From the IMG/VR virus record IMGVR_UViG_3300037264_003623, positions 45,084-109,083 of that record: 64,000 nucleotides of DNA; one strand, given 5' to 3'. The DNA is from a virus. Shown here piece by piece: positions 16,406-35,851 of the stretch. Position 1 is the stretch's first letter. Every line of letters starts with the position of its first letter. Under the pieces are notes generated by a model. That model saw only the letters and a program-made list of their open reading frames with translations. It had not been told where the DNA came from and made no database searches. A program made the translations under genes and the position numbers.

Positions 16406-16658
16406 GATCCTGCGGCGGCTGGGTACCGTCGAGAAGAGGAAGGGGGGAGTCCTGCGAGACGGGATGCAGATAGGGATGATCCGTCTTGTTCTTTTCTCGG
16501 ACGGGAGCGGGGAGGTGCAGGCGGACTGGGCCAAGTATGACGAGGAAATGTGCCGGGAGGAGAAACTTCTTCATGCGATATTCTCGGTCGACGGTCCTAT
16601 CTTCGAGTTTGAGAAGATCGAGCAGTTAGAGGCGTGGCTGGTGGAGCAGAGCGGATGA
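16398..16658 (+). CDS. hypothetical protein
   Basis: ORF track, coupled genes. Confidence 0.55.
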   Translation: MIEILRRLGTVEKRKGGVLRDGMQIGMIRLVLFSDGSGEVQADWAKYDEEMCREEKLLHAIFSVDGPIFEFEKIEQLEAWLVEQSG

Positions 16659-16942
16659 ATGAGCATGGAGGGCCGGACTCGAAGGTGATGTCCAGGTGGG
16701 AGGAGTGCTACTTCGCCGCCAAGGATCTCCCGTCGTTTGTCTGCGTCCGTCTTGCCAGGAGGACTCGGGCGAGGATGAACTGGACGGCGGGGGGGTCGAC
16801 GGAGAGCGTTGCGGCCTCGGAGATCTACGCGATCGCCTTCGAGGGGGTTCCGATCCTTCGTAGCGTCGAGGAGCATCTTCAGCCGGTCCTCGACCGGCTC
16901 AGGGCGTTGCAAGTGGCCGAGAGGATGATGGGCGATGAGTAG
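16655..16942 (+). CDS. hypothetical protein with C-terminal VAERMMG tag
   Basis: ATGA overlap; ends LQVAERMMGDE. Confidence 0.6.
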   Translation: MNEHGGPDSKVMSRWEECYFAAKDLPSFVCVRLARRTRARMNWTAGGSTESVAASEIYAIAFEGVPILRSVEEHLQPVLDRLRALQVAERMMGDE

Positions 16943-17171
16943 AGACCTCAAGTGCAGGACATGCGGGGAGTGGATGAAGGAGATTGCCTGTCACGAGGAC
17001 TCCAACGCTCGCGACTGGATCACGATGTGGTGCCCGGAGTGCGGGACCATCTGCGGATCCTTCGAGTCGGTGTCAGGTCCGCAGGATTACCACTGGGAGT
17101 TCCCGAAGATGGCATCCCTCCCCGAGGTCGGGGCCGCACTTTCTCTCATGCGTGACAGGAACAAGGGTTGA
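16935..17171 (+). CDS. zinc-ribbon protein
   Basis: CRTC...CPECG. Confidence 0.65.
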   Translation: MSRDLKCRTCGEWMKEIACHEDSNARDWITMWCPECGTICGSFESVSGPQDYHWEFPKMASLPEVGAALSLMRDRNKG

Positions 17172-17195
17172 CGGAGAGGCGAAACCGCCTATAAT
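17168..17195 (+). promoter_or_regulatory. promoter of the tRNA cluster
   Basis: TTGACG-16-TATAAT. Confidence 0.75.
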
Positions 17196-17377
17196 AGGGT
17201 CATGAAGATCGGTGCTGACATCCGCGAGGGAAACCGGGGGGCGGCCACGCTCCTCTGGTCCAGCACCACGCCAACATCATGCCTTAGCTTCCACTACCCG
17301 CTGTCCTTGTAGGGCCGCCAGGCCTCTTCGACTCGGTTCCTTGGTCTGGCGGCGGAAACCCCTTCGGGAACCACTGC

Positions 17378-17462
17378 GGGCAGGTCGGATAGCGGCAAGT
17401 CCACCTGGCTGTAAACCAGGCGCCTCAGGCTTACGTGAGTTCGAGTCTCACCCTGCCCACCA
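17378..17462 (+). tRNA. tRNA-Tyr(GTA)
   Basis: GGGCAGG/CCTGCCC, CCTGG-CTGTAAA-CCAGG, long variable arm, CCA. Confidence 0.92.
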
Positions 17463-17537
17463 CGCGCTGTGGCCCAGTCTGGCTAGGGCGCCTGCTTCGG
17501 GAGCAGGAAAACGCCGGTTCGATTCCGGCCAGCGCGA
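17463..17537 (+). tRNA. tRNA-Pro(CGG)
   Basis: CGCGCTG/CAGCGCG, CCTGC-TTCGGGA-GCAGG. Confidence 0.9.
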
Positions 17538-17538
17538 T

Positions 17539-17615
17539 GCTGGGATAGCTCAGACGGTAGTAGCACTGGACTGAAAATCCAGGTGTCGCCGGTTCGATTC
17601 CGGCTCCCAGCGCCA
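17539..17615 (+). tRNA. tRNA-Phe(GAA)
   Basis: GCTGGGA/TCCCAGC, CTGGA-CTGAAAA-TCCAG, CCA. Confidence 0.9.
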
Positions 17616-17703
17616 GCGGAAGTGGCGGAACGGCTAACGCACCCGGTTCAAGGCCGGGCGGCTCGAAAGGGCCTTGCGGGTTCGAGTCCCGCCTTCCGCA
17701 CCA
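17616..17703 (+). tRNA. tRNA-Leu(CAA)
   Basis: GCGGAAG/CTTCCGC, CCCGG-TTCAAGG-CCGGG, long variable arm, CCA. Confidence 0.9.
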
Positions 17704-17787
17704 GGGCGAGTGGTGGAGTTGGCAGACACCTGTGTTTGAGGGGCACAGGCCCGAAAGGGCATGCGGGTTCGACCCCCGCCTCGCCCA
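17704..17787 (+). tRNA. tRNA-Leu(GAG)
   Basis: GGGCGAG/CTCGCCC, loop TTGAGGG, variable arm GCCCGAAAGGGC. Confidence 0.85.
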
Positions 17788-17789
17788 TT

Positions 17790-17821
17790 GCCGGGGTGGT
17801 GAAGTTGGCAGACGCGCTGGC
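17790..17821 (+). tRNA. 5' half of a split tRNA-Leu(GAG)
   Basis: GCCGGGG, D-arm and CTGGC; pairs perfectly with the 3' half at 18501..18555. Confidence 0.8.
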
Positions 17822-17823
17822 AT

Positions 17824-17907
17824 GTTGGAGTGGCGTAATGGCTAACGCACCGGACTCAGGATCCGGGTCCGAAAGGACACCTGTGGGTTCGACTCCCACC
17901 TCCGACA
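17824..17907 (+). tRNA. tRNA-Leu(CAG), nested inside the split tRNA
   Basis: GTTGGAG/CTCCGAC, CCGGA-CTCAGGA-TCCGG. Confidence 0.88.
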
Positions 17908-17915
17908 TTAAAGAC

Positions 17916-17944
17916 TTGGCAGACTCATAGGAACGGGTTATAAT
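17916..17944 (+). promoter_or_regulatory. promoter of the HNH gene
   Basis: TTGGCA-17-TATAAT, RBS AGGAGG downstream. Confidence 0.65.
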
Positions 17945-17970
17945 ATGTCGTCCAAGTAGGAGGACGACAG

Positions 17971-18504
17971 ATGAGAAGGGAAGAGGATCTGCGAAGGGTG
18001 GTTTCCGAGTGCGTGTCTTTTGCCCAGGTTCTTCGACGTTTGGGATTGAAGCAGGCTGGCGGAAGTCAGAGCGAGTTGAAGAAGAGGGTGGAGGCGCTCG
18101 GGATAAGCACAAGTCATTTCCTTGGCAGGAGGACGAACTCGGGGGCGCACCATCGCGGCGGGTGCCCCAAGAAGGCTTGCTCGGAGGTATTGGTTCGTAG
18201 CGTGAGGCGGCATCCCTACCTTCTTCGCCGGGCCTTGCTCGAATCGGGGAGGGAGTACCGCTGCCAAGGAGACGGTTGCCCGGTAAGGGATGAATGGCTT
18301 GGGAAGAAGATCGTCTTGCAGGTGGATCACGTTGATGGAGACAGGAGCAACAATAGGGCTTCCAACCTTCGATTCCTTTGCCCCAACTGTCATTCGCAGA
18401 CAGGCAACTGGGGAAAGAACGAAGGGGGAACGGATCTGACCACTAACGCGAGGCAGTGCCAGAACTGGAGACGGAAACGCCGGGAAGCATCGGGCACGGT
18501 TTGA
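17971..18504 (+). mobile_element. HNH homing endonuclease in the tRNA cluster
   Basis: LQVDHVDGDRSNNRASNLRFLCPNCHSQT; N-terminal SFAQVLRRLGL domain. Confidence 0.9.
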
Positions 18505-18555
18505 GGAGCCAGTGCCCGAAAGGGCGTGCGAGTTCGACCCTCGCCCCCGGCACCA
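18501..18555 (+). tRNA. 3' half of the split tRNA-Leu(GAG)
   Basis: TTGAGGA-GCCAG, variable arm, GCGAG-TTCGACC-CTCGC, CCCCGGC-A-CCA. Confidence 0.8.
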
Positions 18556-18556
18556 T

Positions 18557-18630
18557 GTGGTCGTGGTCCAGCGGTAGGGCGCTTGGTTGTGCCCCAAGAG
18601 ATGGCGGTTCGACTCCGCCCGATCACCCCA
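18557..18630 (+). tRNA. tRNA-His(GTG)
   Basis: GTGGTCG/CGATCAC, CTTGG-TTGTGCC-CCAAG, C73, CCA. Confidence 0.85.
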
Positions 18631-18706
18631 GCCCTCGTAGCTCAGTTGGTAGAGCGGCGCTTTCGTAAAGCGCAGGCCGCAGGTCCGATGCCTGCCGGGG
18701 GCTCCA
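18631..18706 (+). tRNA. tRNA-Thr(CGT)
   Basis: GCCCTCG/CGGGGGC, GCGCT-TTCGTAA-AGCGC, CCA; T-loop TCCGATG. Confidence 0.85.
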
Positions 18707-18950
18707 GGGGCATGGAAATCGCGGATAGCCTATCCGCGCCGCTATACCGCATCTATATCCGGAACGGTGAGTTCACCCCTCGGGACCTACCCCCGGCGAT
18801 CTTTTTCCCCCTTCTCCAGATGTGGATTCCTGTCGAACTTCGCACTTCTCGCGGAATAGGAGGGAATCAGAGGACGATTCCTGTAAGAAACGCGATCGAC
18901 AGGTGTTCAGGAGGGATGAAGTGAGGTTGAAGTGAGGCTGGAGGTGGCTG

Positions 18951-19466
18951 ATGAACGAGGTCAGGGCGAGGATCAGGTGCTCCGGGACGTTCCACACGAT
19001 CGGGATCGACCGCGACGGGATGCCTTTCGCCGCCCACCACTCCCGCGAGGAGATGGAGGCGGCCAGGGTCGCCGAGCAGATCGGAGGGGTCCAGGTGGAC
19101 GTGCCCTGCGTCAGGATGCTGGCGGAGATCGAGGAGTGCCTGCGGAGGAAGTCCTCGCCCCCGTCCGACATGCCCAGGGCGATCCTCGATTTCCTCCTCC
19201 GGCGGAGAGCGCAGGCGGTGGTCGAGCTGCGGGACCGGCAGAGGTACCTGGAGAGGAGGGTCAAGCGGGTGATGCGGCAGGCCGAGCTGGCGGCCAAGGG
19301 GGACCTCTCCTGCCTGGAGGACATCCTGGAGGGGGTGGAGGACGAGATCTACGACCGGTTCCACGGGGAGGGCACCAACGTCCTCCTGGACGTCTTTACC
19401 GAGGCCGAGGCCAGGATCATGCACCGGAGGCAGGATTTCGACCTGCGGAACTTCGAGTCCGTGTGA
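18951..19466 (+). CDS. hypothetical protein
   Basis: RBS GGAGG; typical codon usage. Confidence 0.7.
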   Translation: MNEVRARIRCSGTFHTIGIDRDGMPFAAHHSREEMEAARVAEQIGGVQVDVPCVRMLAEIEECLRRKSSPPSDMPRAILDFLLRRRAQAVVELRDRQRYLERRVKRVMRQAELAAKGDLSCLEDILEGVEDEIYDRFHGEGTNVLLDVFTEAEARIMHRRQDFDLRNFESV

Positions 19467-19483
19467 TTTTTTTTGCTTTTACC

Positions 19484-19524
19484 CTTGACGAAGACCGTGA
19501 TATGTGTATAATACAGGTGTCGAG
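19484..19524 (+). promoter_or_regulatory. conserved early promoter (variant)
   Basis: CTTGACG-16-TATAAT..GTGTCGAG, upstream T-tract. Confidence 0.8.
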
Positions 19525-19539
19525 TTTGAGGTACGCGAG

Positions 19540-19854
19540 ATGGACGAGACGAACGGGCGCAAGACACTCCGGGAGGCTCATGCCGAGTACTGCCGTGAGG
19601 CGGGGATGGCCGAGGAGGCGATAGCCCGGGACTGGGCCGAGTTCCAGACCGACTACGACGCCTGGCTCGACGATCGCCGGGCGCAGGAAGACGCTGATGA
19701 CCCAAGGTTCGCCGACGCGGACTGCGATGAGGAGTCCGAGGATCTGGAGGAGGTCCTCACCGGATCGGGATGGGACCATGACGATTACCGCAACATCATC
19801 ACGGGATCCTTCGACGACGAGACACCATTCGGCCACGAATTAGAGGGCGAGTGA
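19540..19854 (+). CDS. highly acidic small protein
   Basis: About one third Asp/Glu over 104 aa. Confidence 0.65.
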   Translation: MDETNGRKTLREAHAEYCREAGMAEEAIARDWAEFQTDYDAWLDDRRAQEDADDPRFADADCDEESEDLEEVLTGSGWDHDDYRNIITGSFDDETPFGHELEGE

Positions 19855-20378
19855 TGACGACGACTGAGATCACGGCCAACGACGTGGCCCTCGCGCAGGC
19901 GGGGGATTCCGAGGCGAAGGAACGGCTGATCGCCCGGATCGAGCCCCTGATCGGCTGGTGGCTCAAGCGGGTGAGGTGGGCGGGGGCATGGGAGGAAGGG
20001 ATGCAGGAGGGGCGCGTGGGCGTCCTGGAGGCCCTCCGGCGGTTCGATGCTGGTCGTGGGGCCAGGTTCACGACCTTCGCGGGCTGGTGGATCCGCCAGG
20101 CGGTCGAGAGCGCGATGACCCATGCTCCGCTCTCGGTCGAGGAAGTCCCGGAGCGGGAGTCAGGCATGGACGTGGTGGTGGACGCCGCTGCCGCCGCCGA
20201 GATCGTCGGGGCGGTCGGACTGCTTCCTGAGAGGGAGGCCGACCTTCTTCGGTGGCGGTTCTGGGAGGAGGAGTCCCTGGAGGCGATAGGCAAGCGGCTG
20301 GGCCGCCACAAGTACAGCGTGTCCCTGATGATCCAGAAGTCCCTCCGCAAGGTGCGGGGGCTGGTCGGCAAGTGCTGA
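19851..20378 (+). CDS. sigma-70 family sigma factor (regions 2 and 4)
   Basis: QEGRVGVLEALRRFDAGRGARFTTFAGWWIRQAV; LPERE..SLEAIGKRLG. Confidence 0.88.
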   Translation: MMTTTEITANDVALAQAGDSEAKERLIARIEPLIGWWLKRVRWAGAWEEGMQEGRVGVLEALRRFDAGRGARFTTFAGWWIRQAVESAMTHAPLSVEEVPERESGMDVVVDAAAAAEIVGAVGLLPEREADLLRWRFWEEESLEAIGKRLGRHKYSVSLMIQKSLRKVRGLVGKC

Positions 20379-20638: not shown

Positions 20639-20971
20639 ATGCTCTACGGGAGGATGGCGAGGCGCGTCTACAGTCATCATCCATTAGGCAGGATGACGAA
20701 CTTCCCTGAGACGGGGAAGATAGTACACGCTTTCATTGTGGACGAACCCGTCCGCCACGACTCCAGCAAGTCCCCGCTTCTGGAGATGACTTCTCTGTGC
20801 GGCAAGGTCGTGGCTAGGAGGTGGACTGTTGATGTATGGGATGTGTCGTGGCCGAAGCGTCTGGTCAAGACGTGCAAACAGTTCGACTTTTACATGCACC
20901 CGTGCCGGTCGTGCAAGAAGAGGCACTACGATGCGAGGGTTGTGGAGATATTGGCTGGAGTAGAGACATGA
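20639..20971 (+). CDS. H-CG-CxxC zinc-finger family protein with C-terminal tag
   Basis: VHAF..SLCG..CRSC..VVEILAG. Confidence 0.65.
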   Translation: MLYGRMARRVYSHHPLGRMTNFPETGKIVHAFIVDEPVRHDSSKSPLLEMTSLCGKVVARRWTVDVWDVSWPKRLVKTCKQFDFYMHPCRSCKKRHYDARVVEILAGVET

Positions 20972-21336
20972 GGATCCTCATCCTTGATGACGACCCGACT
21001 CGTGGGATGGCCTTCCGGAGGGTACTGATCGGACACCTCGTCACGGTCGTGACGACGGCCCCGGAGGCGATCCAGAGACTCGCCGCGGAGGACTGGGACG
21101 CGACATCCCTGGACCACGACCTGGGCGACGAGCAGATGGTCGACTCCGGGCCGGGGACCGGGTGGGAGGTGGCGAGGTGGCTCGCCGAGAACCCCACCAG
21201 GATTCCCAAGGCGGTCGTCCTGCACTCCTTCAACCCCCCGGGGCGGGCGAGGATGAGGGACCTGCTCCCGGACTCCGTGCTGGCCCCGGGGTGGTGGATG
21301 ACCGGGAAGTGGCCGCTGGAGGCGGATGTCGGATGA
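20968..21336 (+). CDS. cyclic-phosphate-processing receiver-like domain protein
   Basis: RILILDDD, SLDHDLG, TGWEVARWL, LHSFNPPGRARM. Confidence 0.8.
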   Translation: MRILILDDDPTRGMAFRRVLIGHLVTVVTTAPEAIQRLAAEDWDATSLDHDLGDEQMVDSGPGTGWEVARWLAENPTRIPKAVVLHSFNPPGRARMRDLLPDSVLAPGWWMTGKWPLEADVG

Positions 21337-21674
21337 GCGGATGTGCGCCGGACGATAGCGCGAACCGGTTCTACATCGGGGATCTGATGATCTCCGCCGA
21401 GCCCTTGTATCACGTCTGGACCCTGATCGACGGCAACCTTGGGGAGGGGACTCTGCGCTCGATGTGCGGACTCACGAAACGGCGCGATGAGATATCGCTG
21501 TATCGGGGAATGTGGAGAAAGTTGAAGCGGTACAGGGGTGGTCTCTGCAAGAAGTGTCGGTGGGAGGAAGTCCAGGCCGCTGCCATACTTTCGGATGTCG
21601 ACAGGAACGTGACTCTGGACGAGCATGATTTTCTGGCGGCCATGTTCGATGAGGAGGATGAGGGTCTGCCGTGA
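21333..21674 (+). CDS. H-CG-CxxC zinc-finger family protein
   Basis: YHVW..SMCG..CKKC..AAAILSD. Confidence 0.6.
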   Translation: MSGCAPDDSANRFYIGDLMISAEPLYHVWTLIDGNLGEGTLRSMCGLTKRRDEISLYRGMWRKLKRYRGGLCKKCRWEEVQAAAILSDVDRNVTLDEHDFLAAMFDEEDEGLP

Positions 21675-21997
21675 GGATGTTCATCTACGTCAAGGACACG
21701 CCGGAGCAGCGGAAGGCCCGACGCCGGTTTCGGAACCGGTCCCCGAGGCGGGTGGTCCACACCACGACATCTTTCGCATCGGCCGGGGTCTACCTCTGCG
21801 GCTGCGGCCTGAAGGCCCGTGTAGACGACGTCAAGGACTTCGAGTCGGTCGCCGGGAGGGTGTCCAACTCCTTCGACATGGACAGGGCCGGGGGGGTCGA
21901 GTGCATCGACCAGATGTCGTGCTGGGAGTGGTGCCCAGGCTGCCGTGAGGACTATATGACGGAGGTGACGGCGGAGATCCTGGCTGGGAAGAGGTGA
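21671..21997 (+). CDS. H-CG-CxxC zinc-finger family protein with C-terminal tag
   Basis: VHTT..GCG..CPGC..TAEILAG. Confidence 0.65.
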   Translation: MRMFIYVKDTPEQRKARRRFRNRSPRRVVHTTTSFASAGVYLCGCGLKARVDDVKDFESVAGRVSNSFDMDRAGGVECIDQMSCWEWCPGCREDYMTEVTAEILAGKR

Positions 21998-22088: not shown

Positions 22089-22310
22089 ATGAGGCCGATC
22101 TGCGTGAGGTGTCGCCGGGAGATGGCCCCGGGGGTCAACGAGTTCCTGGTCAAGGACAAGGCTGTCGGCAATTCCCCGTCGACCTACCGGTTCGGAGACC
22201 TGTTCGAGTGCCCCGACTGTGGGGCCCAGGTCGTCGTCGGATTCGGGAAGGGGCTGACGGAGTCGGAGGTCGGGGGCAGGGCGAAGGACGCGCTGGAGTT
22301 CATTCGATGA
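22089..22310 (+). CDS. zinc-ribbon protein
   Basis: CVRC...GDLFECPDCG. Confidence 0.7.
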   Translation: MRPICVRCRREMAPGVNEFLVKDKAVGNSPSTYRFGDLFECPDCGAQVVVGFGKGLTESEVGGRAKDALEFIR

Positions 22311-22642
22311 GACGGTCCTTCTTCAGCAGCCACGATAAGGAGTTCGCCGCCGTTCATGCCCTGGAGCGCAGGGGATGGTGCCGGGCGTGCTCCGCTGCCC
22401 CGTCTCTGCGGAGCCTGAGGGTGCCGGTCGAGATGGTCCCGATGCCGTACCGGGGGAAGAACTGGTTCCATCTCCGAATCGTTCCGTGGGCACCCAAGTG
22501 GGCGGTGGGACTGGTTAAGCGCATGAAGGGGCTCAAGGTCAGGCGGTCGGACAGGGCCGCCGCCTTCAAGGAGGCGCTGGAACTGGGGGGAGCGGGCCCC
22601 CTTGCCGAGGCTATTATCGTGGCCGGGAAGATGATGAGGTAG
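22307..22642 (+). CDS. hypothetical protein with C-terminal tag
   Basis: Ends EAIIVAGKMMR. Confidence 0.6.
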   Translation: MRRSFFSSHDKEFAAVHALERRGWCRACSAAPSLRSLRVPVEMVPMPYRGKNWFHLRIVPWAPKWAVGLVKRMKGLKVRRSDRAAAFKEALELGGAGPLAEAIIVAGKMMR

Positions 22643-22645: not shown

Positions 22646-22912
22646 ATGCATTATGTGTTGATCGCGAGGAAGAGAGGGTTGAACCTCCATCTCCCACCCG
22701 GCGCCAGGAGATGTGGGAAGATCCACGCCTATGAGGAGGAACCTAATGTGGGGGAGCCCATCGTGTCTTTGTGCGGTCAGCGGGCCGTGTCCCATAGGTG
22801 CGACTTCCCGGGGAATCCGCTTCCCAACCGCCGCTGGAAGGTCTGCAAGAGGTGCCTCCCGGCGATCGAAGCGGAGACGGTGGGCAAGATTTTGGCAGAG
22901 AGGCCGCCATGA
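22646..22912 (+). CDS. H-CG-CxxC zinc-finger family protein with C-terminal tag
   Basis: IHAY..SLCG..CKRC..VGKILAE. Confidence 0.65.
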   Translation: MHYVLIARKRGLNLHLPPGARRCGKIHAYEEEPNVGEPIVSLCGQRAVSHRCDFPGNPLPNRRWKVCKRCLPAIEAETVGKILAERPP

Positions 22913-23121: not shown

Positions 23122-23579
23122 TGGACCAGAAGATGAAGGCTCTCATCAAGAAGTTCGCCGACTTCTTCCTGATGGATCCGGCGTTCAAGGACATCCCGGA
23201 CGACATCATGGGGGCGGTCTCCGACCCGGCTTTGGCCCCTATCCTGGCCTCGACGGCGCACGTCTTCCTCTTGGGGAAGGAGGACAACGGGACGGACGAG
23301 GAGCTGGAGAAGGAAGGGGACGCCCTTTTCCATGCGTTCTATCTGGAGAGCCTCAGGCGGATGTTCGCCTCCGACCGGCCGAAGACCTTCGCCTTTCGGG
23401 ACCGGAAGGTCCGCGACTTCATGAAGGTCTTGGAGTTCGCGTTCGACGAGGACGAGGCGATCCACTCGATGCGTCTGAAGATCCAGGGGCTTATCGGCAT
23501 CGAGCTCTCGGTCGAGAAGATGCGGGAGATCATGCAGGAGACGATCGCGGACGCGATCAGGCCCCACGAGGGAAGATGA
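23121..23579 (+). CDS. hypothetical helical protein
   Basis: Coupled ORF MDQKMKALIKK. Confidence 0.65.
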   Translation: MDQKMKALIKKFADFFLMDPAFKDIPDDIMGAVSDPALAPILASTAHVFLLGKEDNGTDEELEKEGDALFHAFYLESLRRMFASDRPKTFAFRDRKVRDFMKVLEFAFDEDEAIHSMRLKIQGLIGIELSVEKMREIMQETIADAIRPHEGR

Positions 23580-23908
23580 TCGAGCAGGGCGAGCCGGTGA
23601 AGGCAAGGTTCGGGAGGACCGCGCCTGTCGGGGATGGGTGGGTCTACGGGTGCATCGTCTGCAAAGTCAGGCCGAGAACCCTGACGATATGCAAGTGTCT
23701 CTCCGACGGGAACGAGTACGCCTTGTGCTTCCCGTGCCTGGACGCGATGGGCGACCTCGGGATGGTCGAGGAGAGGATCGAGACATACGTCTAGGAGTCC
23801 GGCAACAACTTCACTTTGAGGCATACGACGACAGTCAACAAGCACGACCTGACCCGGTGTCCAAGGGACGAGGGCCTCCGGGCGGCGGTCATGCTGGCGA
23901 GGCGGTGA
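23576..23908 (+). pseudogene. Cys-rich paralog interrupted by in-frame TAG at 23792
   Basis: Reading through TAG gives CPRDEGLRAAVMLARR*, matching the CP+tag ends of the next three genes. Confidence 0.6.
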
Positions 23909-23909: not shown

Positions 23910-23924
23910 CGCACACCGTGTGCG
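23910..23924. promoter_or_regulatory. 15-bp palindrome CGCACACCGTGTGCG, copy 3
   Basis: Perfect palindrome just after TGA 23908. Confidence 0.6.
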
Positions 23925-24187
23925 CGGATCAGAGGAAGTGCGGGTACTGCGGAATGACGGGCGATCGGCGCACACGGTGGAAGATGTTCCAGTGCTCGTG
24001 CGGGAAGATCCACTACTTCTGCGAGCTCTGCTACAGGGACCTCCTGAGCAAGGGGATCATCGTCCGCAGGGGGCGGAGGGGCGGGGGGAAGAAGGACTTC
24101 CTGAAGGCGTGCCCGGCGGAGGTCCGTGTCGCCGAGGCGATTATGCGGGAGAACCGCAGGGTGGACTGGGAGGTCACGAACCTGTGA
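23918..24187 (+). CDS. Cys-rich tandem paralog
   Basis: CGYC..CSCG..CELC..CPAEVRVAEAIMR. Confidence 0.65.
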   Translation: MCADQRKCGYCGMTGDRRTRWKMFQCSCGKIHYFCELCYRDLLSKGIIVRRGRRGGGKKDFLKACPAEVRVAEAIMRENRRVDWEVTNL

Positions 24188-24402
24188 TCTGCGATCTATG
24201 CAAGACGGCTTTCATCTCCAGGGGGTCGGTTCGGGACCTCCAGTGCGGGTGCGGGAGCGTCTACCGGGCGTGCCTGACGTGCAGGCGTGCCCTGCTGAGG
24301 CAGGACTTCGCCTACTACGAGGGCAAGGGGATGGTCCTCAAGATATGCCCGACGGCATTAGAGGTCGCCCAGAGGCTGATGGATGGTGGGGACGGCGGAT
24401 GA
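24184..24402 (+). CDS. Cys-rich tandem paralog
   Basis: CDLC..CGCG..CLTC..CPTALEVAQRLMDG. Confidence 0.65.
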   Translation: MICDLCKTAFISRGSVRDLQCGCGSVYRACLTCRRALLRQDFAYYEGKGMVLKICPTALEVAQRLMDGGDGG

Positions 24403-24650
24403 GCGAGTCTCTATGCGTGATCTGCGGGAAGGGGCAGTACCAGCCCGACGAGCAGGGGGGGTACATCGGGATGCGCGACGTGTTGTGCGCGTGCGGGGAT
24501 GTCCACCGCGTCTGCAAGCGGTGCTGGACGAACCCCGGGAGCAAAGTCCTGGCCGAGGCGTTCTCCTGGGATTCCAAAACCTGGATGGGGGACGCCAAGT
24601 TCGACGTGTGCCCGAAGGATATTCTGGTGGCCTGGAGGTTGATGGGATGA
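24399..24650 (+). CDS. Cys-rich tandem paralog
   Basis: CVIC..CACG..CKRC..CPKDILVAWRLMG. Confidence 0.65.
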   Translation: MSESLCVICGKGQYQPDEQGGYIGMRDVLCACGDVHRVCKRCWTNPGSKVLAEAFSWDSKTWMGDAKFDVCPKDILVAWRLMG

Positions 24651-24801: not shown

Positions 24802-25272
24802 ATGATGCCCAGGGAAGACCCGATCCGCGAGTACTTCGAGATCGATCTCCCCGACAAGAGATTCCGTGAGCAGAACGAGCGCCTTCAGCGGAAGATCGAC
24901 GAGGGCATCGGGATGAGGGGGAGTCCGCCGCGTTTGAGGAAGACATGGTGGATCTCCACTCCAGGGATGGATTCCAAACGTGCGTTCGGTCTCTCCGATG
25001 CCATTGAGGCGCTCGACTCCCCGGACATGATCTCGGATATGGGCCACATCCCTCTGGTCCGGTGGAGCGGGTGTTTGTGGCACCTGATGGTTTCCTCCCA
25101 CTGCAACCCGGCCAGGGTGGTGTCGGCGTGCGGAGAAACCTTCCCGATGGGAGAGAGGGTGGAGGGGAAACTGGAGATCGAGCCGAACCGGAACCTGACC
25201 TGCATGGGGTGCTGGACCCACGTCGAGGCGGCCAAGGTCGCCCTGATCCTGGCGGGGGAGAGCGATGAGTGA
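24802..25272 (+). CDS. H-CG-CxxC zinc-finger family protein with C-terminal tag
   Basis: WHLM..SACG..CMGC..VALILAG. Confidence 0.65.
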   Translation: MMPREDPIREYFEIDLPDKRFREQNERLQRKIDEGIGMRGSPPRLRKTWWISTPGMDSKRAFGLSDAIEALDSPDMISDMGHIPLVRWSGCLWHLMVSSHCNPARVVSACGETFPMGERVEGKLEIEPNRNLTCMGCWTHVEAAKVALILAGESDE

Positions 25273-26896
25273 GGCCGACCGCTTCGCCGGATTTCCATCG
25301 CCCTCGTGGGCATCGCCCGCTGGCTGGGCCCGGCTTCACCTGGGGAACTGCGTCGAGGTGATGAGGTCCCTGCCTGAGTCCTCGATCGACGCGATCGTGA
25401 CCGACCCCCCGTATGGTATTGAGTTCATGGGGAGGGATTTCGACAAGTTGGGGCAGGGGCCGCAGATGCAGGAATGGCACCGGGCGTGGGCGGTCGAGGC
25501 TCTTCGAGTGGCTAAACCCGGTGCCTTCCTTCTTGCCTTTGGCGGAACCCGGACTTGGCATCGACTTGCGTGCGCGATTGAGGATGCAGGATGGGAGATC
25601 AGGGATACTCTCATGTGGATGTACGGGCAGGGATTTTCTAAAAGCATGGATGTCTCGAAGGCGATCGATAAGGCGGCGGGGTCTGATCGGGAGAAGATCC
25701 CGGAGGGGAACTCCGTAAAGCGGATGGTGCCGGGGGCGGACCAATACAAGACTAATTCCTGGATCAAAAGCGACGATCACATGTACCAGTCGGGGCGGGA
25801 GGTTCCGGTGACGGAGGCCGCGAGGACTTGGGAGGGCTATGGCACATCGCTAAAACCAGCCTGGGAGCCGGTCGTGGTCGCCCGGAAGCCCCTGGCCGGG
25901 ACGGTGGTTGATAACGTCCTGAAGCACGGGACGGGGGCGCTGAACATCGATGGGACGAGAATCAGGATCGCGCCCACTTCTCAGGATGGCTCTCGTAGTA
26001 GTCCTGATGATAGCATTTGCGACACATGCCCTTCGCGTGAGGTTTCCCATACTGTCCGCAGCGAGGACATTCACATGGAGGCCTCGTCTGCTCCTCAACG
26101 CGACGGTCGTAGCGTCCTTCGACCCAGTGAATCCGAATATGAGATCGAGAATCAATCACGCATAGATTCTCGGGCGAGTCGTCGTCCTTCCTACCGTTTA
26201 GATGATGGACTTGCTCATGCGGAAGAAGAGCCCGACCAAGCATACGTTCAGCAACGACTCGGTGATACCGAGTCTCCCGTCCGTCAACTAAGCAGCAGGT
26301 GTATCCACGCGGGTCTTTCCACATGTTTACATCGTACTACACCACATGTTGAAAGTCAAGGCCGCTTCCCCGCGAACGTGATCCACGACGGGAGCGAGGA
26401 GGTGGTAGGGATGTTCCCCGATCGCAAGACGACCTGGATCGATCCGTCTCATGCGAACAACCGGGGCGGGGATTTCCTGGGGGCTCTTGGGCATCCCGGG
26501 ATGCAGGGGTTCAACGACTCCGGCTCCGCCGCCCGCTTTTTCTACACGTCGAAGGCTGATGCGTCCGAGCGGTGGTTCTACTGCCGGATCTGCCAGGGGG
26601 CCTACCCCGCGTCCGCGGAGCAGGGGCACCACCACGGGAAGGGGCTGGGGAAGTGCCAGCACATCTTTAGACACCCGACCGTGAAGCCCTTGTCTCTATG
26701 CTCTTGGCTCTGCCGCCTCGTCTCGATGCCAGGGGGGAGCGTGATCCTCGATCCGTTCATGGGGTCGGGCTCGACGGGCGTGGCGGCCCTCGTGGAGGGC
26801 CAGCGGTTCGTTGGGGTGGAGATGGACGGGGAGTTCTTCGCCCTATCGGCGGCCCGGGTCGCGGACGCGAAGCGCCAGCCGGGCCTCTTCGACTGA
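25265..26896 (+). CDS. N6-A/N4-C DNA methyltransferase (beta class) with a long in-frame insertion
   Basis: IVTDPPY, LKPAWEP, GRFPAN, HPTVKP, LDPFMGSGSTG. Confidence 0.92.
   Translation: MSEADRFAGFPSPSWASPAGWARLHLGNCVEVMRSLPESSIDAIVTDPPYGIEFMGRDFDKLGQGPQMQEWHRAWAVEALRVAKPGAFLLAFGGTRTWHRLACAIEDAGWEIRDTLMWMYGQGFSKSMDVSKAIDKAAGSDREKIPEGNSVKRMVPGADQYKTNSWIKSDDHMYQSGREVPVTEAARTWEGYGTSLKPAWEPVVVARKPLAGTVVDNVLKHGTGALNIDGTRIRIAPTSQDGSRSSPDDSICDTCPSREVSHTVRSEDIHMEASSAPQRDGRSVLRPSESEYEIENQSRIDSRASRRPSYRLDDGLAHAEEEPDQAYVQQRLGDTESPVRQLSSRCIHAGLSTCLHRTTPHVESQGRFPANVIHDGSEEVVGMFPDRKTTWIDPSHANNRGGDFLGALGHPGMQGFNDSGSAARFFYTSKADASERWFYCRICQGAYPASAEQGHHHGKGLGKCQHIFRHPTVKPLSLCSWLCRLVSMPGGSVILDPFMGSGSTGVAALVEGQRFVGVEMDGEFFALSAARVADAKRQPGLFD
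25962..26324 (-). mobile_element. HNH endonuclease embedded antisense inside the methyltransferase ORF
   Basis: HRVVAERMLGRAL..VHHLNGRKDDDSPENL..H...H plus C-terminal CPRC..CRKC; lower GC. Confidence 0.85.
26331..26359 (-). promoter_or_regulatory. promoter of the antisense HNH (leaderless)
   Basis: TTGACT-17-TACGAT-6-ATG on the minus strand; AACATGTGG repeated twice. Confidence 0.7.
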
Positions 26897-27848: not shown

Positions 27849-28118
27849 ATGAAGAACCCCTGCGGCAAGCTGCGTCCCATCGAGGACCCCTACGCCGTCT
27901 ACTGGTCGGCGGACGGGTGGGAGTGGAGGGTCCTGAAGAAGAACCTGTCTCCCGACCAGGAGGCGAGGAACCCCTTCGCGGCCTGGTTCTGCGCCACGAA
28001 GTCTCCCTTCACGTTCGGGCGGTACGAGTACGGGGACGTGTACGCGGCCGATGTGCTCAAGAACGGGGTGGACGTCACGGAGGAGACGATGGTGGCGGAT
28101 AGGATCGCCGGGGGGTGA
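27849..28118 (+). CDS. hypothetical protein with C-terminal tag
   Basis: WEWRVLK..WFCATKSPFTFG..EYGDVY; ends MVADRIAGG. Confidence 0.7.
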   Translation: MKNPCGKLRPIEDPYAVYWSADGWEWRVLKKNLSPDQEARNPFAAWFCATKSPFTFGRYEYGDVYAADVLKNGVDVTEETMVADRIAGG

Positions 28119-29386: not shown

Positions 29387-29741
29387 TCGTCTTCAAGCAT
29401 CTTGAGTACCGGATCTACAAGGTGAAACGGCACCGTCAGTACAGCTACGACCTCCACCGGTACGTCGAGAAGCGGGAGTACGACTACGAGCATCCCGTCG
29501 TGAAGACGCGGGCGCATTCGCATCTCTTCATCCGGGAGGAGGGGATAGGTGGATGTCCCCGTGCGGGCACGAGATCGAGCACAAGGCGGCCTTCGGGGGT
29601 ATCCGCCCCGAAGACCTTGATCACGCAGTGGAGATTTTCGTCGGTAGGGAATCGGTCATCCTTCCCTGCCTGAAGTGCAGGGATTGGCTGCGGAGGAACA
29701 AGGAGGCGGTGCTCGCCGCGGAGCACCTGAATAGAGAATGA
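29383..29741 (+). pseudogene. H-CG-CxxC family protein, frameshifted in the G run at 29541-29544
   Basis: HLFIREEG + DRWMSPCG..CLKC..AAEHLNRE parallels the adjacent paralog 29738..30016. Confidence 0.6.
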
Positions 29742-30016
29742 TCGTGATCAGAAACAAGGGGACGATCTTCGAACGTGGGGTAGTGCATGTCTTCGTCCGG
29801 CAGGGATCCGAGTTCAGGGCTCTGTGTGGGGTCAAGGCCGACTTCCCCGCCTCCGAAATGCGGACGCTTGCCGAGGACATCCTGTCAGAGGACGGGGCCG
29901 AGCGGGCCGTCGAGAGGTTCAAGAGGGTTCGGGATGGGTGCGAGAGGTGCGCGGTCTGGCTGGAGAAGAACTGGGATGCCCTGGTCGTGGCGGAGCGCCT
30001 GGCGGCGACGAGGTGA
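29738..30016 (+). CDS. H-CG-CxxC zinc-finger family protein with C-terminal tag
   Basis: VHVF..ALCG..CERC..VVAERLAA. Confidence 0.65.
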   Translation: MIVIRNKGTIFERGVVHVFVRQGSEFRALCGVKADFPASEMRTLAEDILSEDGAERAVERFKRVRDGCERCAVWLEKNWDALVVAERLAATR

Positions 30017-30019: not shown

Positions 30020-30469
30020 ATGTTCGTCCTGGTGGGGAAGGATCTGGTGGACCTGGTGACCCGGCGCATCCCCGAGGTCGTCGAGAAGGTGATGCAGAGG
30101 GGCCACTCGAAGTGGTGCGATAGCGCGAGGATCGTCCCCTGGTCGGCGGGTGACGAGGTGGGGGCGACCCTTCGGGTTTCCATCAAGCCTTCCTCCGTTC
30201 GGGCCTCGCGTGGGGACTTCGCCCTCTCATGGGGCGTGGCGCTCAACGGGCAATCGAAGATGGAGATCGCCCTCTATGACGGGGACATGGCGGGCCTTCT
30301 TCACGAGTCACTGTTCGGTCGGGATGGGCAGGTGGACGACGTGAGGCTCGACCTCGACTCGGCCATCAAGGGGAGGGTGGGGTGCGCGGACGTGAATGTC
30401 CTCGTGAGCAGGGTCGTCGAGAAAGTCCGGAACGCGGTGGTGGCCCACAAGATGATGGAGGGGGCATGA
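30020..30469 (+). CDS. hypothetical protein with C-terminal tag
   Basis: Ends NAVVAHKMMEGA. Confidence 0.6.
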   Translation: MFVLVGKDLVDLVTRRIPEVVEKVMQRGHSKWCDSARIVPWSAGDEVGATLRVSIKPSSVRASRGDFALSWGVALNGQSKMEIALYDGDMAGLLHESLFGRDGQVDDVRLDLDSAIKGRVGCADVNVLVSRVVEKVRNAVVAHKMMEGA

Positions 30470-30738: not shown

Positions 30739-31076
30739 GCGAGCAGGGTGTCAGTCTGGAGTTCTTCGCCGGGGCGTGCAAGTTGCTCGCCAGGAGCTTC
30801 GGGAACCGGCTCATGGACGTGTCCACGGCGAACGCGATCAAGGACCATTTCGCCGACATCGAGGCCCTCTACAAGACGCTGGAGATGGTCCCCAGGCGGA
30901 AGCCGGGGCACAAGGGCAAGAACGCCTACTACTGCACCTGCTGGGACAGGGACGCCTGGGTGGAGCCGATAGGCGGGGATGCGGTGAAAGACAAGAGCGT
31001 CCGGCGGGGCCGTTCCGACGGGCCCCTCCACGAGCGCGGGAGCGAGAAGTGCTGGGTCGGGAAGGAGAAAAAGTGA
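30735..31076 (+). CDS. hypothetical protein
   Basis: RBS GGAGG, ATGA overlap. Confidence 0.55.
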   Translation: MSEQGVSLEFFAGACKLLARSFGNRLMDVSTANAIKDHFADIEALYKTLEMVPRRKPGHKGKNAYYCTCWDRDAWVEPIGGDAVKDKSVRRGRSDGPLHERGSEKCWVGKEKK

Positions 31077-31483
31077 ACGAGGAGAGGCTGTTCTCGATGC
31101 TCCAAGAGCTGACGGAGGCCGTCGTCGCCCTCGCGAAGGCGGTCGAGGCCGGGCGCAAGGAGACGGAGCGTCTCTGTGACCTGATCCAGCCGATCACCGA
31201 GAAGGTATTGGATTCCGAGGACGAGGGGAGGGTTGCCAGGGCCATCATGGGCCCCCCGAAAGTGGGGATGATGCTTCGCAACGACTACGCGGCCCTCAAG
31301 GACGCGATCGAGAATCCCCCCGATGCGGGCAAGAAGATCAGTGCCATAAAGGCCGTCCGGTCGGCGACGAGAAGTAGCCTGAAGGACGCGAAGGACCTGG
31401 TCGACAAGTATTGGGACACGCTGGAGAGAAGGCGGAATCTCCTCGACATGTTCGATGTTGGTGAGGCACCTTCCCCCGTATGA
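31073..31483 (+). CDS. coiled coil plus ribosomal L7/L12 C-terminal-like domain
   Basis: GKKISAIKAVRSATRSSLKDAKDLVD. Confidence 0.7.
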   Translation: MNEERLFSMLQELTEAVVALAKAVEAGRKETERLCDLIQPITEKVLDSEDEGRVARAIMGPPKVGMMLRNDYAALKDAIENPPDAGKKISAIKAVRSATRSSLKDAKDLVDKYWDTLERRRNLLDMFDVGEAPSPV

Positions 31484-32080: not shown

Positions 32081-32095
32081 AGCGAGGAGGATGAA

Positions 32096-32529: not shown

Positions 32530-33114
32530 ATGAAAACAAAAACATGTAGCCGATGCGGCAGGAACCTTCCGGCCACAGAGGAATTTTTCTTCAGAAAAAG
32601 CAAGAGGACCGGCTGGTTGTCGGGGTGCCGGGACTGCCGAAGAGTTTTGTCGAGGGATGCTTATCGCAATCGCAACAGAATCAATCACGGAAGGCTGCAA
32701 AAACTGGAGGAGCTTAGAGTCTGGAGGAGCAAGTACGGCCTCCGGAAAAAGGCGGCACAGAGGTCACATGACCCAATCGGTTATTATGCGTCTGTCATGT
32801 TCAATTCTTCTTACAGGGCATCTCTTCGTAAGAAGATACCGCATACCATTACCAGGGCATGGATCCGGCAACAGTTAGACAAGGGGATATGCTCGGCAAC
32901 TGGGCTACATTTTAGATTTCCGAAACCAGAGGAAGGGAACCTTATAGGGCGGGATCCTTACCGGCCTTCACTTGACAGAATAGACAACACCAAGGGGTAC
33001 ACCCCGGATAATAGCAGAGTAGTTCTTTGGTGGTACAACGTCGCCAAGGGGCCTTGGTCGGACGAAGAGATGCTGGTCTTGGCGGAGGCGGTAGTCCGTT
33101 ACGTAAGACGATGA
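32530..33114 (+). mobile_element. free-standing His-Me finger homing endonuclease
   Basis: CSATG..PSLDRIDNTKGYTPDNSRVVLWWYNVAKG; own TTGACA..TATCCT promoter; low GC. Confidence 0.82.
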
Positions 33115-33269
33115 TGGGGCCCTGCTACTACGGGTGCCCCCTCAAGTACCTGGAGATGGTGCCCTGCCCGGACAGTCAGTACGCCCGCGAGTGGCGGGAG
33201 GTGGTGAAGCGGTGGTGGGCGGTCCAGCGGGAGCGGAGGCAGGAGCGCAAGGCGAGGCAATCGGCGTGA
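33111..33269 (+). pseudogene. displaced original 3' end of gene 32096
   Basis: MGPCYYGCPLKYLEMVPCPDSQYAREWR parallels CGPNHVSCPRSYLGMVPCPDNQIARAWR. Confidence 0.8.
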
Positions 33270-33277
33270 GGTGTTGG

Positions 33278-33490
33278 ATGCCCGAGATGCCCGAGATGCC
33301 CTTAGAAGTGAAGCTGGCCATCGGACGGTTGTTCAGGATGATGAGCCGCCCCAGTCAGCCTGGCGATGTGGACATGTTCTACAAGTGCCGATCCATCATC
33401 CTGAACGCCGCGGAGGCCGGGGGTGTCTCTGTGGATGACTATCAGCCGAACTGGGTCCGAGATCGGTTGAAGGGTGCCCAGGGCGATTGA
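33278..33490 (+). CDS. hypothetical protein
   Basis: RBS GAGG; MPE repeat start. Confidence 0.55.
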   Translation: MPEMPEMPLEVKLAIGRLFRMMSRPSQPGDVDMFYKCRSIILNAAEAGGVSVDDYQPNWVRDRLKGAQGD

Positions 33491-33632
33491 GGGGGGTGGG
33501 AGATGAGGCGGTTGGCGGTATGGATTCTCAGGAGAGCGGCCTTGCTCTGCTACCGGGGCGAGGTCATCTTTCGGATCGGATGCTGGCCGGGGCCGAATGG
33601 TTCCGGAGAAAGAGTTACGGAGGGAGGGGCAG

Positions 33633-33911
33633 GTGAAGATTCTCGACATGTCGGTGGTGGCGGTTCGGAAGCCACTAATTAGCGACACGAGGGAGTGCGA
33701 CTGCTGCGGCAAGACGATACCTCGCAAGACGAAGGCGTTGCGGGGCAAAGTTAGGGAGGGTTACGCAACCACGACGCTGTACGTCTGCGGAGACTGCGAG
33801 ACGGCTTACGGGGGAGAGGAAGCGATCAAGAGGGCCCACGCGAAACTAGTCAGCGACATCCGGACGATGCTCGCCAACGCGAAGCCCGCGACGGACATGG
33901 ATTTGAGGTGA
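33633..33911 (+). CDS. zinc-binding protein
   Basis: CDCCG...CGDC; start uncertain. Confidence 0.55.
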   Translation: MKILDMSVVAVRKPLISDTRECDCCGKTIPRKTKALRGKVREGYATTTLYVCGDCETAYGGEEAIKRAHAKLVSDIRTMLANAKPATDMDLR

Positions 33912-33914
33912 TAC

Positions 33915-34727
33915 GTGACCTGGTTCAAGATCGAGTGGCCGAAGATGGTCGAGGTGGTTCCCGAGGGGCAGATCGGGGAGGCCAAGGTTATGCACTTCGA
34001 GGTGTCGGAGAAGATGAGCCGCATGACGTCCATCCGTGCGGCCCTCAACTCCAGCCGGAACGAGTACGTCCCCGGGGGCCGATACGCGAAGCTCATCGTC
34101 GGCCAGGACTTGATGATGAGCGACACGCTCATGGAGCAGTCCACGAACGCCAGGGCCGTGATGGAGGCCAACGGTGACGTTCTGATTGCGGGTATGGGGC
34201 TCGGGGTCATGCTGATCCCGGTCTGCCGCAAGCCTGATGTCAGGAGCGTCCTGGTCGTCGAGAAGTCCGCCGACGTGATCGTCCTGATCGAGCCCCACGT
34301 CCGCCGGTTCCTGGGCGCGGACGCCGCGAAGCTCACGGTGGTCCAGGGGGACATCTTCGACTTCAAGCCCCCCAAGGGGCAGAAGTGGGATGTTCTGTGG
34401 TTCGATATATGGGCGCAAAAGTGCGAAGACAACCTGGACGAGATGAGCGTCCTGAAGCGCCGGTTCGCCCGGCGGCTCAATCGCGGGAATCCGAAGTGCT
34501 GGATGGGTGCGTGGGAGGAGGCACGCCTCCGCTACCTCCGACGGCAGAGTAGGCGCGAGAACGCATACCAGATGGCGAGGGGCCTCGATAGCGAGGAGAA
34601 GATCGCCGACTTCGTGTCGGCGTTCGCCGAGGCCACGGGGGAGGACCAGGGGGATGTCCGGAGGGAGGTCGTCGGGATCATCCGGGACGTGCGGATGTCC
34701 GACCGGGCGGTGGTGGCTAGGGTGTGA
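33915..34727 (+). CDS. class I SAM-dependent methyltransferase (spermidine-synthase-like fold)
   Basis: GDVLIAGMGLG, VVEKS, QGDIF, WFDIW. Confidence 0.75.
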   Translation: MTWFKIEWPKMVEVVPEGQIGEAKVMHFEVSEKMSRMTSIRAALNSSRNEYVPGGRYAKLIVGQDLMMSDTLMEQSTNARAVMEANGDVLIAGMGLGVMLIPVCRKPDVRSVLVVEKSADVIVLIEPHVRRFLGADAAKLTVVQGDIFDFKPPKGQKWDVLWFDIWAQKCEDNLDEMSVLKRRFARRLNRGNPKCWMGAWEEARLRYLRRQSRRENAYQMARGLDSEEKIADFVSAFAEATGEDQGDVRREVVGIIRDVRMSDRAVVARV

Positions 34728-34747
34728 TCGTTTTTTTTTGCTTTCCT

Positions 34748-34788
34748 CTTGACGAAAGGGAACAAACGGATATAATATGAGTGTCAAG
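34748..34788 (+). promoter_or_regulatory. conserved early promoter
   Basis: CTTGACG-16-TATAAT-ATGAGTGTCAAG, upstream T-tract. Confidence 0.88.
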
Positions 34789-34804
34789 AGTGAGGAGTAG
34801 GACG

Positions 34805-35236
34805 ATGATCTGGAACACCGAAGCGACGAAGAAAGCGAAGAAGGTCCTGGTCCAGGACGTCCTGGAGCGGTCCGACGATTTCGTGGTCAGGGCGCTCAAG
34901 GCCGTCTACGCCCGGCAGACCGCCGACGAGCGGGGGGCCGAGATCACCGTCCACCAGAACGGGAGGGGCTTCACCGGCTTCGACGCCCACATCCTCTCCT
35001 CCTTCGCCAAGCAGGTCGAGAAGTGGGAGGCTGCCGCCGAGAGGCAGTTCCCCTCCCCTCTGTCCCCCAAGCAGATGGCGACTGCCCGCAAGATGATGGG
35101 CAAGTACTGGGCACAGCTTATCGAGGTGGCCGACGAGAAGGCGAAGACCGCCCCTGCCCCGGTCGTACCCGTCCAGGCTCCCGCGGTCCTGCGGGTGTCC
35201 CCCTACAAGGGGCGGCGGATAGCCGAGGCGAGTTAG
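34805..35236 (+). CDS. hypothetical early protein
   Basis: RQTADE..NGRGFTGFDA.ILSSFA..LSPKQ..KYWAQL. Confidence 0.75.
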   Translation: MIWNTEATKKAKKVLVQDVLERSDDFVVRALKAVYARQTADERGAEITVHQNGRGFTGFDAHILSSFAKQVEKWEAAAERQFPSPLSPKQMATARKMMGKYWAQLIEVADEKAKTAPAPVVPVQAPAVLRVSPYKGRRIAEAS

Positions 35237-35239
35237 GAC

Positions 35240-35851
35240 GTGAGGACGGACATGTACGCGAATCGAATCGATTTGACCGAGGACGAGATCCTGCTCCTCG
35301 ACGGGAGGAGTCGGGCGGAGGTCCAGTCCGAGGTAGATAGGATCAAGTCCTTCCGGGCCAAGGTCGCGGGGGGGATGAGCATCTACATGGCCCGGATCAT
35401 CTCTGACGCTGAGACGACGGGTATCCTGGACTTCAAGAACTCATCAGGAGGGAAATGCGCCCGGTGCGGGGAGCCGGGGTCGTCTGATGCCGTGTACCTT
35501 CGGGGGCCGAATAGGGGCCAGAGGAAGAAGCGCAACCCCACCATCTATCACACGACCTCTTATGTGGGGAGTCAGAGCTTCTGTATGGGGTGCTGGCCGA
35601 CCGTCATGAAGGAGCTCAGGGAGATGGACCACGCCCCGCTTTACGAGATCAAGATACAGGGGATCGTCAACAAGGTGATCCTCGATTTGGAGATGAAGTG
35701 CTACGGTTGCGAGCTGGTGTATTGGAAGACAGAGACGAAGGCCGGGTGGGATTGCCCTAGCTGCGGGAGGAGTATGAGACCGTTCAATGGGTCAGGCAAG
35801 AGGATCATCGAGATCGCCGCGCTGAACGCGGCTAATATACTGATGAGGTGA
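35240..35851 (+). CDS. zinc-binding protein with C-terminal tag
   Basis: Four CxxC; ends LNAANILMR. Confidence 0.65.
   Translation: MRTDMYANRIDLTEDEILLLDGRSRAEVQSEVDRIKSFRAKVAGGMSIYMARIISDAETTGILDFKNSSGGKCARCGEPGSSDAVYLRGPNRGQRKKRNPTIYHTTSYVGSQSFCMGCWPTVMKELREMDHAPLYEIKIQGIVNKVILDLEMKCYGCELVYWKTETKAGWDCPSCGRSMRPFNGSGKRIIEIAALNAANILMR

Follow-up and report, generated by a model that had tools for sequence, protein, structure and literature searches.

Unrelated proteins of one phage can end in the same kind of short hydrophobic peptide and meet at a single hub, as is the case for the sliding-clamp-binding tails of gp43, gp33 and gp55 of T4. The MIM helices of ESCRT-III proteins, received by the MIT domain of Vps4, are C-terminal and amphipathic, with one conserved face displayed by several carriers to one groove. 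In animal viruses, PDZ-binding motifs give early proteins of different origin the same terminal motif and direct them to one class of host hub, and cargo-loading peptides (those of encapsulins, the encapsulation helices of microcompartments and the capsid-targeting peptide of T4) act as portable terminal addresses to one shell protein. Recurrent elements can also reside in the DNA, as do the start-associated sequences located just 5' of many gene starts in the Cluster K mycobacteriophages, whose genomes have a high guanine-plus-cytosine (GC) content. Here we describe a short sequence, hereafter the tag, found at the C-termini of about 20 small non-structural proteins of a virus with a GC content of ~63%. 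The DNA analysed, called the window, is the 3'-most 64,000 nucleotides (positions 45,084 to 109,083) of the 109-kb IMG/VR record IMGVR_UViG_3300037264_003623, which is 75% complete according to CheckV. An initial annotation of the window had pointed out that about 16 of its early proteins end in the same helical tag on otherwise unrelated bodies, and had suggested a docking helix for one hub or a shared degron, either of which would be plausible. No description of such a tag was found in the literature searched.

A C-terminal tag selected as a peptide

Genes (160-163) were obtained with a simple codon-usage caller, such that their starts are approximate and their stops, which fix the C-termini, are exact; genes are named here by the window position of their first nucleotide. 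The 16 terminal and three internal peptides listed in the initial annotation are all present in the sequence, with the correction that the positions given for them are the starts of the bearing genes and not those of the tags. Their placement at or near the C-termini was right in general, QAAAILSD (21333) and RVAEAIMR (23918) being located 25 and 12 amino acids (aa) from the end. Of the 160 called proteins, 15-16 have a box of the form [VAT]-[AVG]-x-x-[LIM]-[MA]-[GRDEA] no further than 6 residues from the C-terminus, 16 terminal matches against the 0.45 expected from 2,000 residue shuffles. The consensus proposed initially, [VA]A..[LIM][MA][GR], was found within 6 aa of the end in 8 proteins (0.055 expected, also with 2,000 shuffles). 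Inside the proteins, the wider expression gave 14 matches, which is the chance level (~11.7 expected in total, all positions counted), and the internal copies that had been listed in the kinase at 413 and in 18951 and 31073 are not separable from chance.

The wider expression was tuned on the same proteins, and more weight is given to the controls that follow. In the six frames of the same DNA, none of 1,291 non-gene open reading frames (ORFs) of at least 40 aa ends in the tag, compared with 15 of the 160 genes. For cross-validation, a BLOSUM profile was built from four members of family B, one of the two zinc-finger families described below, and run on the 146 proteins that belong to neither family A nor family B; 11 C-termini scored at least 8, whereas 1.49 were expected from internal windows (P=3.9e-7). 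The tag is carried by 12 of the 46 genes of the small-gene block at 16-36 kb and by none of the 27 structural genes (Fisher P=0.0026); five further bearers are located 5' of the window. A home-made expectation-maximisation motif finder also recovered EVAERLKG at the C-termini, and was discarded as evidence since it overfits (log-likelihood ratio 161, against 113-149 in controls).

We then asked whether the tag persists in related IMG/VR records, which were reached via a structural protein. The record G001 (63.8 kb, GC 0.667) shares synteny with the window and is enriched in the same way (9 where 0.65 were expected, P=2e-8); it also has extra bearers without counterpart in the window. All eight ortholog pairs shared with G001, at 41-72% overall identity, keep the tag, as in VAGKMMR/VAGRMMG, VADRIAG/VAESLAG, VALILAG/VAEALMG and VAHKMME in both. 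Between these ortholog tags, identity is 24/32 at positions 1, 2, 5 and 6 and 11/24 at the others, with eight synonymous codon differences. A homolog of the 30020 protein at 49% identity ends in VVAHKMLEAA, and G004, a member of the same clade whose record begins inside the early block, keeps all four orthologous bearers that it contains. The distant relative G005 (complete, 150 kb, GC 0.68) has no enrichment (1 against 1.95), nor does the sister lineage G006 (GC 0.60; 0 against 0.86), which includes ~30 small genes and shares the structural module at 34-85% identity; hence, high-GC phage proteomes do not have the tag as a rule. Of the remaining records, G007 is limited to structural genes, and G008, with a low GC, is unrelated.

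Chance, base composition or a DNA signal read in frame, such as a Shine-Dalgarno or coupling region or a start-associated repeat, might leave a pattern of this kind in a high-GC genome whose genes are tightly packed with ATGA overlaps, and some tags do overlap GGAG-like runs. At the conserved positions, however, three codons are used for Val (GTC, GTG and GTT), four for Ala (every GCN) and six at the Leu/Ile/Met position. The residues after the box number from 0 to 25 (usually 0-12, once 25) and are variable and Gly/acidic: DE, VET, KR, RPP, GGDGG, ESDE, a 12-aa tail and a 25-aa tail are among them. The next called gene may start anywhere from a 14-nucleotide (nt) overlap to ~350 nt downstream of the end of the bearer, and tags also occur where that gene is 91-350 nt away. 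Because codons, trailing residues and spacing all vary, the pattern cannot stem from an in-frame reading of a Shine-Dalgarno sequence or of a start-associated DNA element, and no nucleotides conserved at a fixed distance 5' of the next start were found. A ribosome-binding-site or DNA-repeat artefact was likewise rejected on the codon variation together with the non-gene ORF control. With the high-GC relatives that have no enrichment and the retention of the tag across orthologs despite synonymous change, artefact in any of these forms deserves next to no credence. The motif is real, specific to the C-terminus and conserved at the peptide level; it is as a peptide that the tag is selected.

Bodies that carry the tag and possible readers of its helix

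When the tag was removed, 23 bearers fell into 20 BLASTP groups, which upholds the idea of unrelated bodies for most of them; it does not extend to all, as two zinc-finger families could be recognised and other relationships were noted. Family B (23918, 24184, 24399 and the interrupted 23576) consists of detectable multi-Cys, RING-like paralogs ending in C-P-x4-6-tag, and the two bearers 5' of the window at -42074/-41346 form a pair of paralogs. Family A, or HC3-type, is a looser set in which 20639, 21333, 21671, 22646, 24805, 29744 and the frameshifted 29383 have in common an H, then C-G, then CxxC, with the tag 6-12 residues past the CxxC. The possibility that these six or seven are plain paralogs, which would explain their tag, was rejected, given that without the tag BLASTP found no pair, leave-one-out hidden Markov models gave E values of 0.01-2.5 and hhalign probabilities did not exceed 21%. 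When the tag was left in place, profile-profile comparison matched best (65%) over no more than the C-terminal stretch of ~24 residues comprising the CxxC and the tag. Searches of the bearers against Pfam and PHROGs returned sub-threshold zinc-finger matches only: the HC3-type bodies reached 13.4 bits with zf-HC3 (PF16827; cutoff 25) and 13.2 with DUF5318 (cutoff 31), in one member of nine each, and family B reached 15.2 bits with Prok-RING_4 (PF14447; cutoff 27), with seven conserved Cys, including that of the terminal C-P, and an eighth ligand that is not conserved. The HC3 profile found no match in a sequence search of the PDB. HC3-type homologs in other phages retain a helix after the CxxC, with a looser sequence; the helix of this family is ancestral and not an add-on. 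The single bearer of G006 is a family B member ending in C-P-x5-TAVRLM, so family B had the helix before the two lineages split and may well be the source from which the tag spread.

That a fold already in existence can gain the tag, and retain it afterwards, is shown by the 27849 protein. This protein is one of a widespread family, of which 56 members were found, most of them of 71-90 aa and ending a few residues past a conserved ...GDVYVxxIKxNAxKV. Among the 56, only the protein of the window and four close relatives (63-70% identity) continue into a tail, GVDVTxExxxAxxxxG, with 8 positions invariant in the five; one of these relatives shares its contig with an ortholog of 21333. The expectation that homologs in other phages would lack the tail was thus borne out for this family outside the clade, and the tail behaves as a portable module. 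In an AlphaFold2 (AF2) model built on a 50-sequence alignment (predicted local distance difference test, pLDDT, 95), the protein has four strands and short helices, and the tail is a helix at residues 77-86 with a pLDDT of 84 in the last block. In the AF2 model of the HC3-type 22646 protein, helix 71-85 begins at the CxxC. Foldseek found nothing at E<=0.001 for either model, and for 27849 only weak rows of chromo, Tudor and Sm type (small beta-barrels).

We propose that the tag is a portable C-terminal amphipathic alpha-helix specific to this clade. Its conserved face would be formed by V-A (positions 1 and 2) and [LIM]-[MA] (positions 5 and 6), positions 3 and 4 being variable and mostly charged, and the helix would be closed by a Gly or polar cap and followed by a floppy, variable Gly/acidic tail. 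This small and hydrophobic face may dock in trans into one groove, such that many small proteins, many zinc fingers among them, would be plugged into one shared partner. Candidates for the partner are a machine of the host and a conserved protein of the phage, or else the bearers might bind one another by helix-helix packing of small residues, for which the Ala at position 2 and the AxxxA spacing of the ILAG subclass would be appropriate. We favour a shared reader because the same face recurs on different folds, the 27849 family gained the tag, and the bearers are non-structural proteins of one clade only; it appears to be the best explanation for these three facts, and we hold it with a confidence just short of even. 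Several points weigh against it. The motif is short and its definition partly post hoc, and the profile of family A alone gave a weaker cross-family signal (7 against 2.65, P=0.018). A Cys or CxxC is located within 22 residues 5' of the tag in 11 of 17 profile-positive bearers, with a zinc ligand 4-12 residues before it and CxxC-to-tag spacings of 6, 8 or 12 in the HC3-type proteins (hand count), which fits the integral helix of a treble clef. Since AF2 models the 27849 tail with high confidence, this tail may pack in cis on its own barrel. Finally, the comparison of genes shared among relatives, which are either too close or too distant, offered no candidate for the reader.

Those zinc ligands suggest that the box could be the C-terminal half of a helix placed after the last zinc knuckle in treble-clef or RING-like fingers, where it would only stabilise each fold without any common reader. 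The fingers would be fast-evolving, either deep paralogs or proteins sharing a recombined 3' module, and the bearers without zinc would have acquired the tag by capture of a 3' end or by convergence. A zinc-knuckle-plus-helix module does account for part of the pattern, because Cys or CxxC is close by in 11 of 17 bearers, and the H..CG..CxxC common to six or seven proteins, the helix kept after the CxxC in the family A homologs and the two AF2 models are all in line with it. The same face is found, nonetheless, on the modelled beta-barrel of 27849 and on bearers with no zinc site just 5' of the tag (16655, 22307 and genes 1637 and 6467 of G001; 30020 has a lone Cys nearby), and in 27849 the tail is an addition to a family of which ~50 homologs fold without one. 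The recurrence of V-A..L-M/A-G is not explained by packing on different cores, and codon-level diversity speaks against recent capture of DNA. As an account of the whole pattern, packing in cis seems to us unlikely.

The helix might instead be read by an AAA+ protease or adaptor, of host or phage, by which the early proteins would be cleared, or protected, together. In lambda, CII, O, N and Xis are under the control of host proteases, and a degron would agree with a tag limited to small non-structural genes, terminal and followed by a flexible Gly/acidic tail. The phage itself encodes a classic-clade AAA ATPase (PF00004, 5e-17; genome 38338-39693, window -6745 to -5390) of 451 aa, with an NRPGRFD resembling the second region of homology and a 200-aa N-domain without assigned function. 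The tag-bearing G004, however, has no ortholog of this gene, which encodes the only AAA ATPase of the phage, at the syntenic place, and the ATPase is not supported as the reader. Besides, a well-formed helix is predicted for the tag, and the extreme C-terminus, 0-25 residues past the box, is not conserved, unlike in ssrA/LAA-type recognition by ClpXP; a conserved non-polar extreme C-terminus with a free carboxylate was not found in the bearers. We regard clearance or protection through a degron as rather improbable. Even less probable is a membrane-targeting amphipathic helix of the MinD/FtsA type that would bring the small proteins to the inner membrane. The hydrophobic spacing i, i+1, i+4, i+5 is as in that type, and Arg or Lys is frequent at position 4 and G or GG at the end, which we take to be reminiscent of the C-terminus of Escherichia coli MinD; yet the best-conserved residue is a small, near-invariant Ala, the face is made of V/A/L/M rather than F/L/W, and about seven conserved residues give a hydrophobic moment that is weak for insertion.

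Returning to the shared reader, its broader form would be a clade-specific protein address system, in which one transferable helix leads ~20 otherwise unrelated early proteins to a single receptor of host or phage, and this we put forward as a tentative possibility. Most small early phage proteins are orphans without a handle for their study. If the proposal is true, one pull-down with the tag could name the partner of ~20 proteins, a fifth of the accessory proteome would be grouped by function, and the tag, being portable, would serve to target proteins inside infected cells. The widespread 27849 family, where the tail was gained naturally, allows a clean comparison with and without the tag.

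The tag-bearing genes and their surroundings

The bearers of the window are all encoded on the + strand, as are nearly all its genes. At the beginning of the block, gene 16136-16405 has a degenerate tag, VALRFAA (16370..16390), followed by 4 aa and with a weak profile score (~5-6). Gene 16655-16942 (95 aa) contains the core VAERMMG (16913..16933), followed by 2 aa, which obtained the top cross-validated score, 15.5; judged by eye, 16136 and 16655 look like paralogs. The zinc-ribbon gene 16935-17171 has the tag-like AALSLMR (17133..17153), with 5 aa after it. Downstream, eight tRNA genes (Tyr, Pro, Phe, three Leu, His and Thr) are clustered at 17378-18706; an HNH-like ORF (17971-18504) separates tRNA-Leu(cag) from tRNA-His. 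An ECF-like sigma factor (Sigma70_r2 and r4; 19851-20378) and a protein with a cREC-type receiver domain (20968-21336) open the main run of tag-bearing genes.

Among the HC3-type proteins of that run, 20639-20971 has VVEILAG (20939..20959) 8 aa past the CxxC, and 21333-21674 has AAAILSD (21576..21596), then a 25-aa acidic extension, its relatives retaining AA[AV][IL]L[GS]. The next one, 21671-21997, has TAEILAG (21968..21988) and is separated by 91 nt from the following gene. VAGKMMR (22619..22639) forms the very end of gene 22307-22642 (VAGRMMG in its G001 ortholog), and VGKILAE (22880..22900) belongs to the HC3-type 22646-22912. In family B, gene 24184-24402 contains VAQRLMD (24364..24384), gene 24399-24650 ends in VAWRLMG (24627..24647), and gene 23918-24187 has VAEAIMR (24128..24148), after which come 12 aa in the window and 1 aa in the G001 ortholog. 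The remaining member, 23576-23908, carries AAVMLAR (23882..23902). The peptide read there initially is present, but it lies past an in-frame TAG (23792-23794), a codon that is CAG (Gln) in the intact 111-aa G001 ortholog, to which the 29 residues past the TAG are 93% identical. A recent nonsense mutation, an error in sequencing or readthrough might account for this TAG; no suppressor tRNA was found among the nine phage tRNAs.

Further downstream, the HC3-type 24805-25272 has VALILAG (25237..25257), which in the G001 ortholog is VAEALMG with a 12-aa tail. It is followed by a DNA methyltransferase ORF (25265-26896) that is open through a Ser/Arg-rich stretch of ~150 residues, insertion-like in look; the caller accepted the 3' part alone (26411-26896). 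VADRIAG (28092..28112) of gene 27849-28118 lies within the ~15-aa tail on the widespread ~75-aa beta-barrel family. LAAEHLNR, which had been assigned to 29383, is also present, in a frame other than that of the 5' part of the gene: a frameshift splits this HC3-type gene, like 23576 an interrupted bearer, into an N-terminal part in the 29383 frame and a part containing C-G, CxxC and the tag in the frame of ORF 29553-29741, which ends in AAEHLNR (29715..29735). The HC3-type 29744-30016 has VAERLAA (29987..30007) 12 aa past the CxxC, and gene 30020-30469 (149 aa) has VAHKMME (30440..30460), retained in homologs of 67% and 49% identity. The last bearer of the block is the multi-zinc-ribbon gene 35240-35851, which ends in AANILMR (35828..35848).

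The protein of 31073-31483, which contains the internal tag-like RVARAIMG followed by PP, has 136 aa, and its residues 86-113 match the C-terminal domain of ribosomal protein L7/L12 (PF00542, E 8e-7) over the factor-binding helices, with 66% identity in G001; judging from this match, it may mimic the ribosomal stalk. Two PI3/PI4-kinase-like proteins (413-1606, and a copy on the genome ending at window position 78) have N-terminal motifs of the HPRxxxGKF type and are ~30% identical to the C-terminal part of a 300-aa protein of the structural block (49996-50898) that is 82% conserved in G001. The portal and other structural genes extend from ~38.8 kb onward, where a 1,790-aa ORF (39707-45079) has a mix of terminase-like and ribonucleotide reductase (RNR)-like matches. 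Located 5' of the window are a class II RNR, DnaB helicase, primase, family A DNA polymerase and RecA, most of them intein-bearing: in L003 and L004 (genome 4091-24477), the RNR, the helicase, the polymerase and RecA each match Intein_splicing and/or LAGLIDADG models, and the primase matches a Hint domain. A TnpB/IS605 OrfB-type gene (OrfB_IS605, Cas12f1-like TNB and helix-turn-helix) is placed inside the phage genome at L004:5714-6844. The full genome probably measures ~150 kb, because a homolog was found on a 148-kb contig. The small-gene block had no match among GenBank phages by megablast, and prophage relatives, sought in GTDB genomes for host identification, gave none either.

Comparison with known systems

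Set beside the systems mentioned at the outset, the tag has none of their defining sequence features. Unlike the T4 clamp tails, it is helical, conserves Ala and Gly and has no QLxLF or PIP pattern, and none of its ~20 bearers is a recognisable replication or transcription enzyme. No beta-clamp motif (QL[SD]LF or QLxLxL-like) was found in the last 16-20 residues of the bearers, and no clamp gene turned up among ~20 larger annotated proteins. Nor does the tag resemble the end of a helix-turn-helix, as the proteins mostly stop 0-5 residues past the Gly, in the register L-[MA]-G and not L-G. In Cluster K, the start-associated sequences are conserved as DNA and keep a constant distance to the start codon, whereas synonymous variation and variable spacing are the rule here.

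PDZ-binding motifs consist of 3-4 residues and need a free C-terminus, in contrast to a helix that tolerates 0-25 trailing residues. Cargo-loading peptides differ in sequence from the tag, whose bearers are encoded in blocks of small non-structural genes and show no sign of being virion proteins. The ESCRT-III proteins are homologous to one another while the bodies described here are not, and the AAA ATPase of the phage is not kept among tag-bearing relatives. In its anatomy, with a conserved face, a charged back, a Gly cap and a floppy tail, the tag nevertheless resembles a docking motif of the helix-in-groove kind. If it does serve as an address, it may be a local dialect of a wider, as yet undescribed habit, that of large phages labelling their small accessory proteins with terminal tags proper to each lineage.

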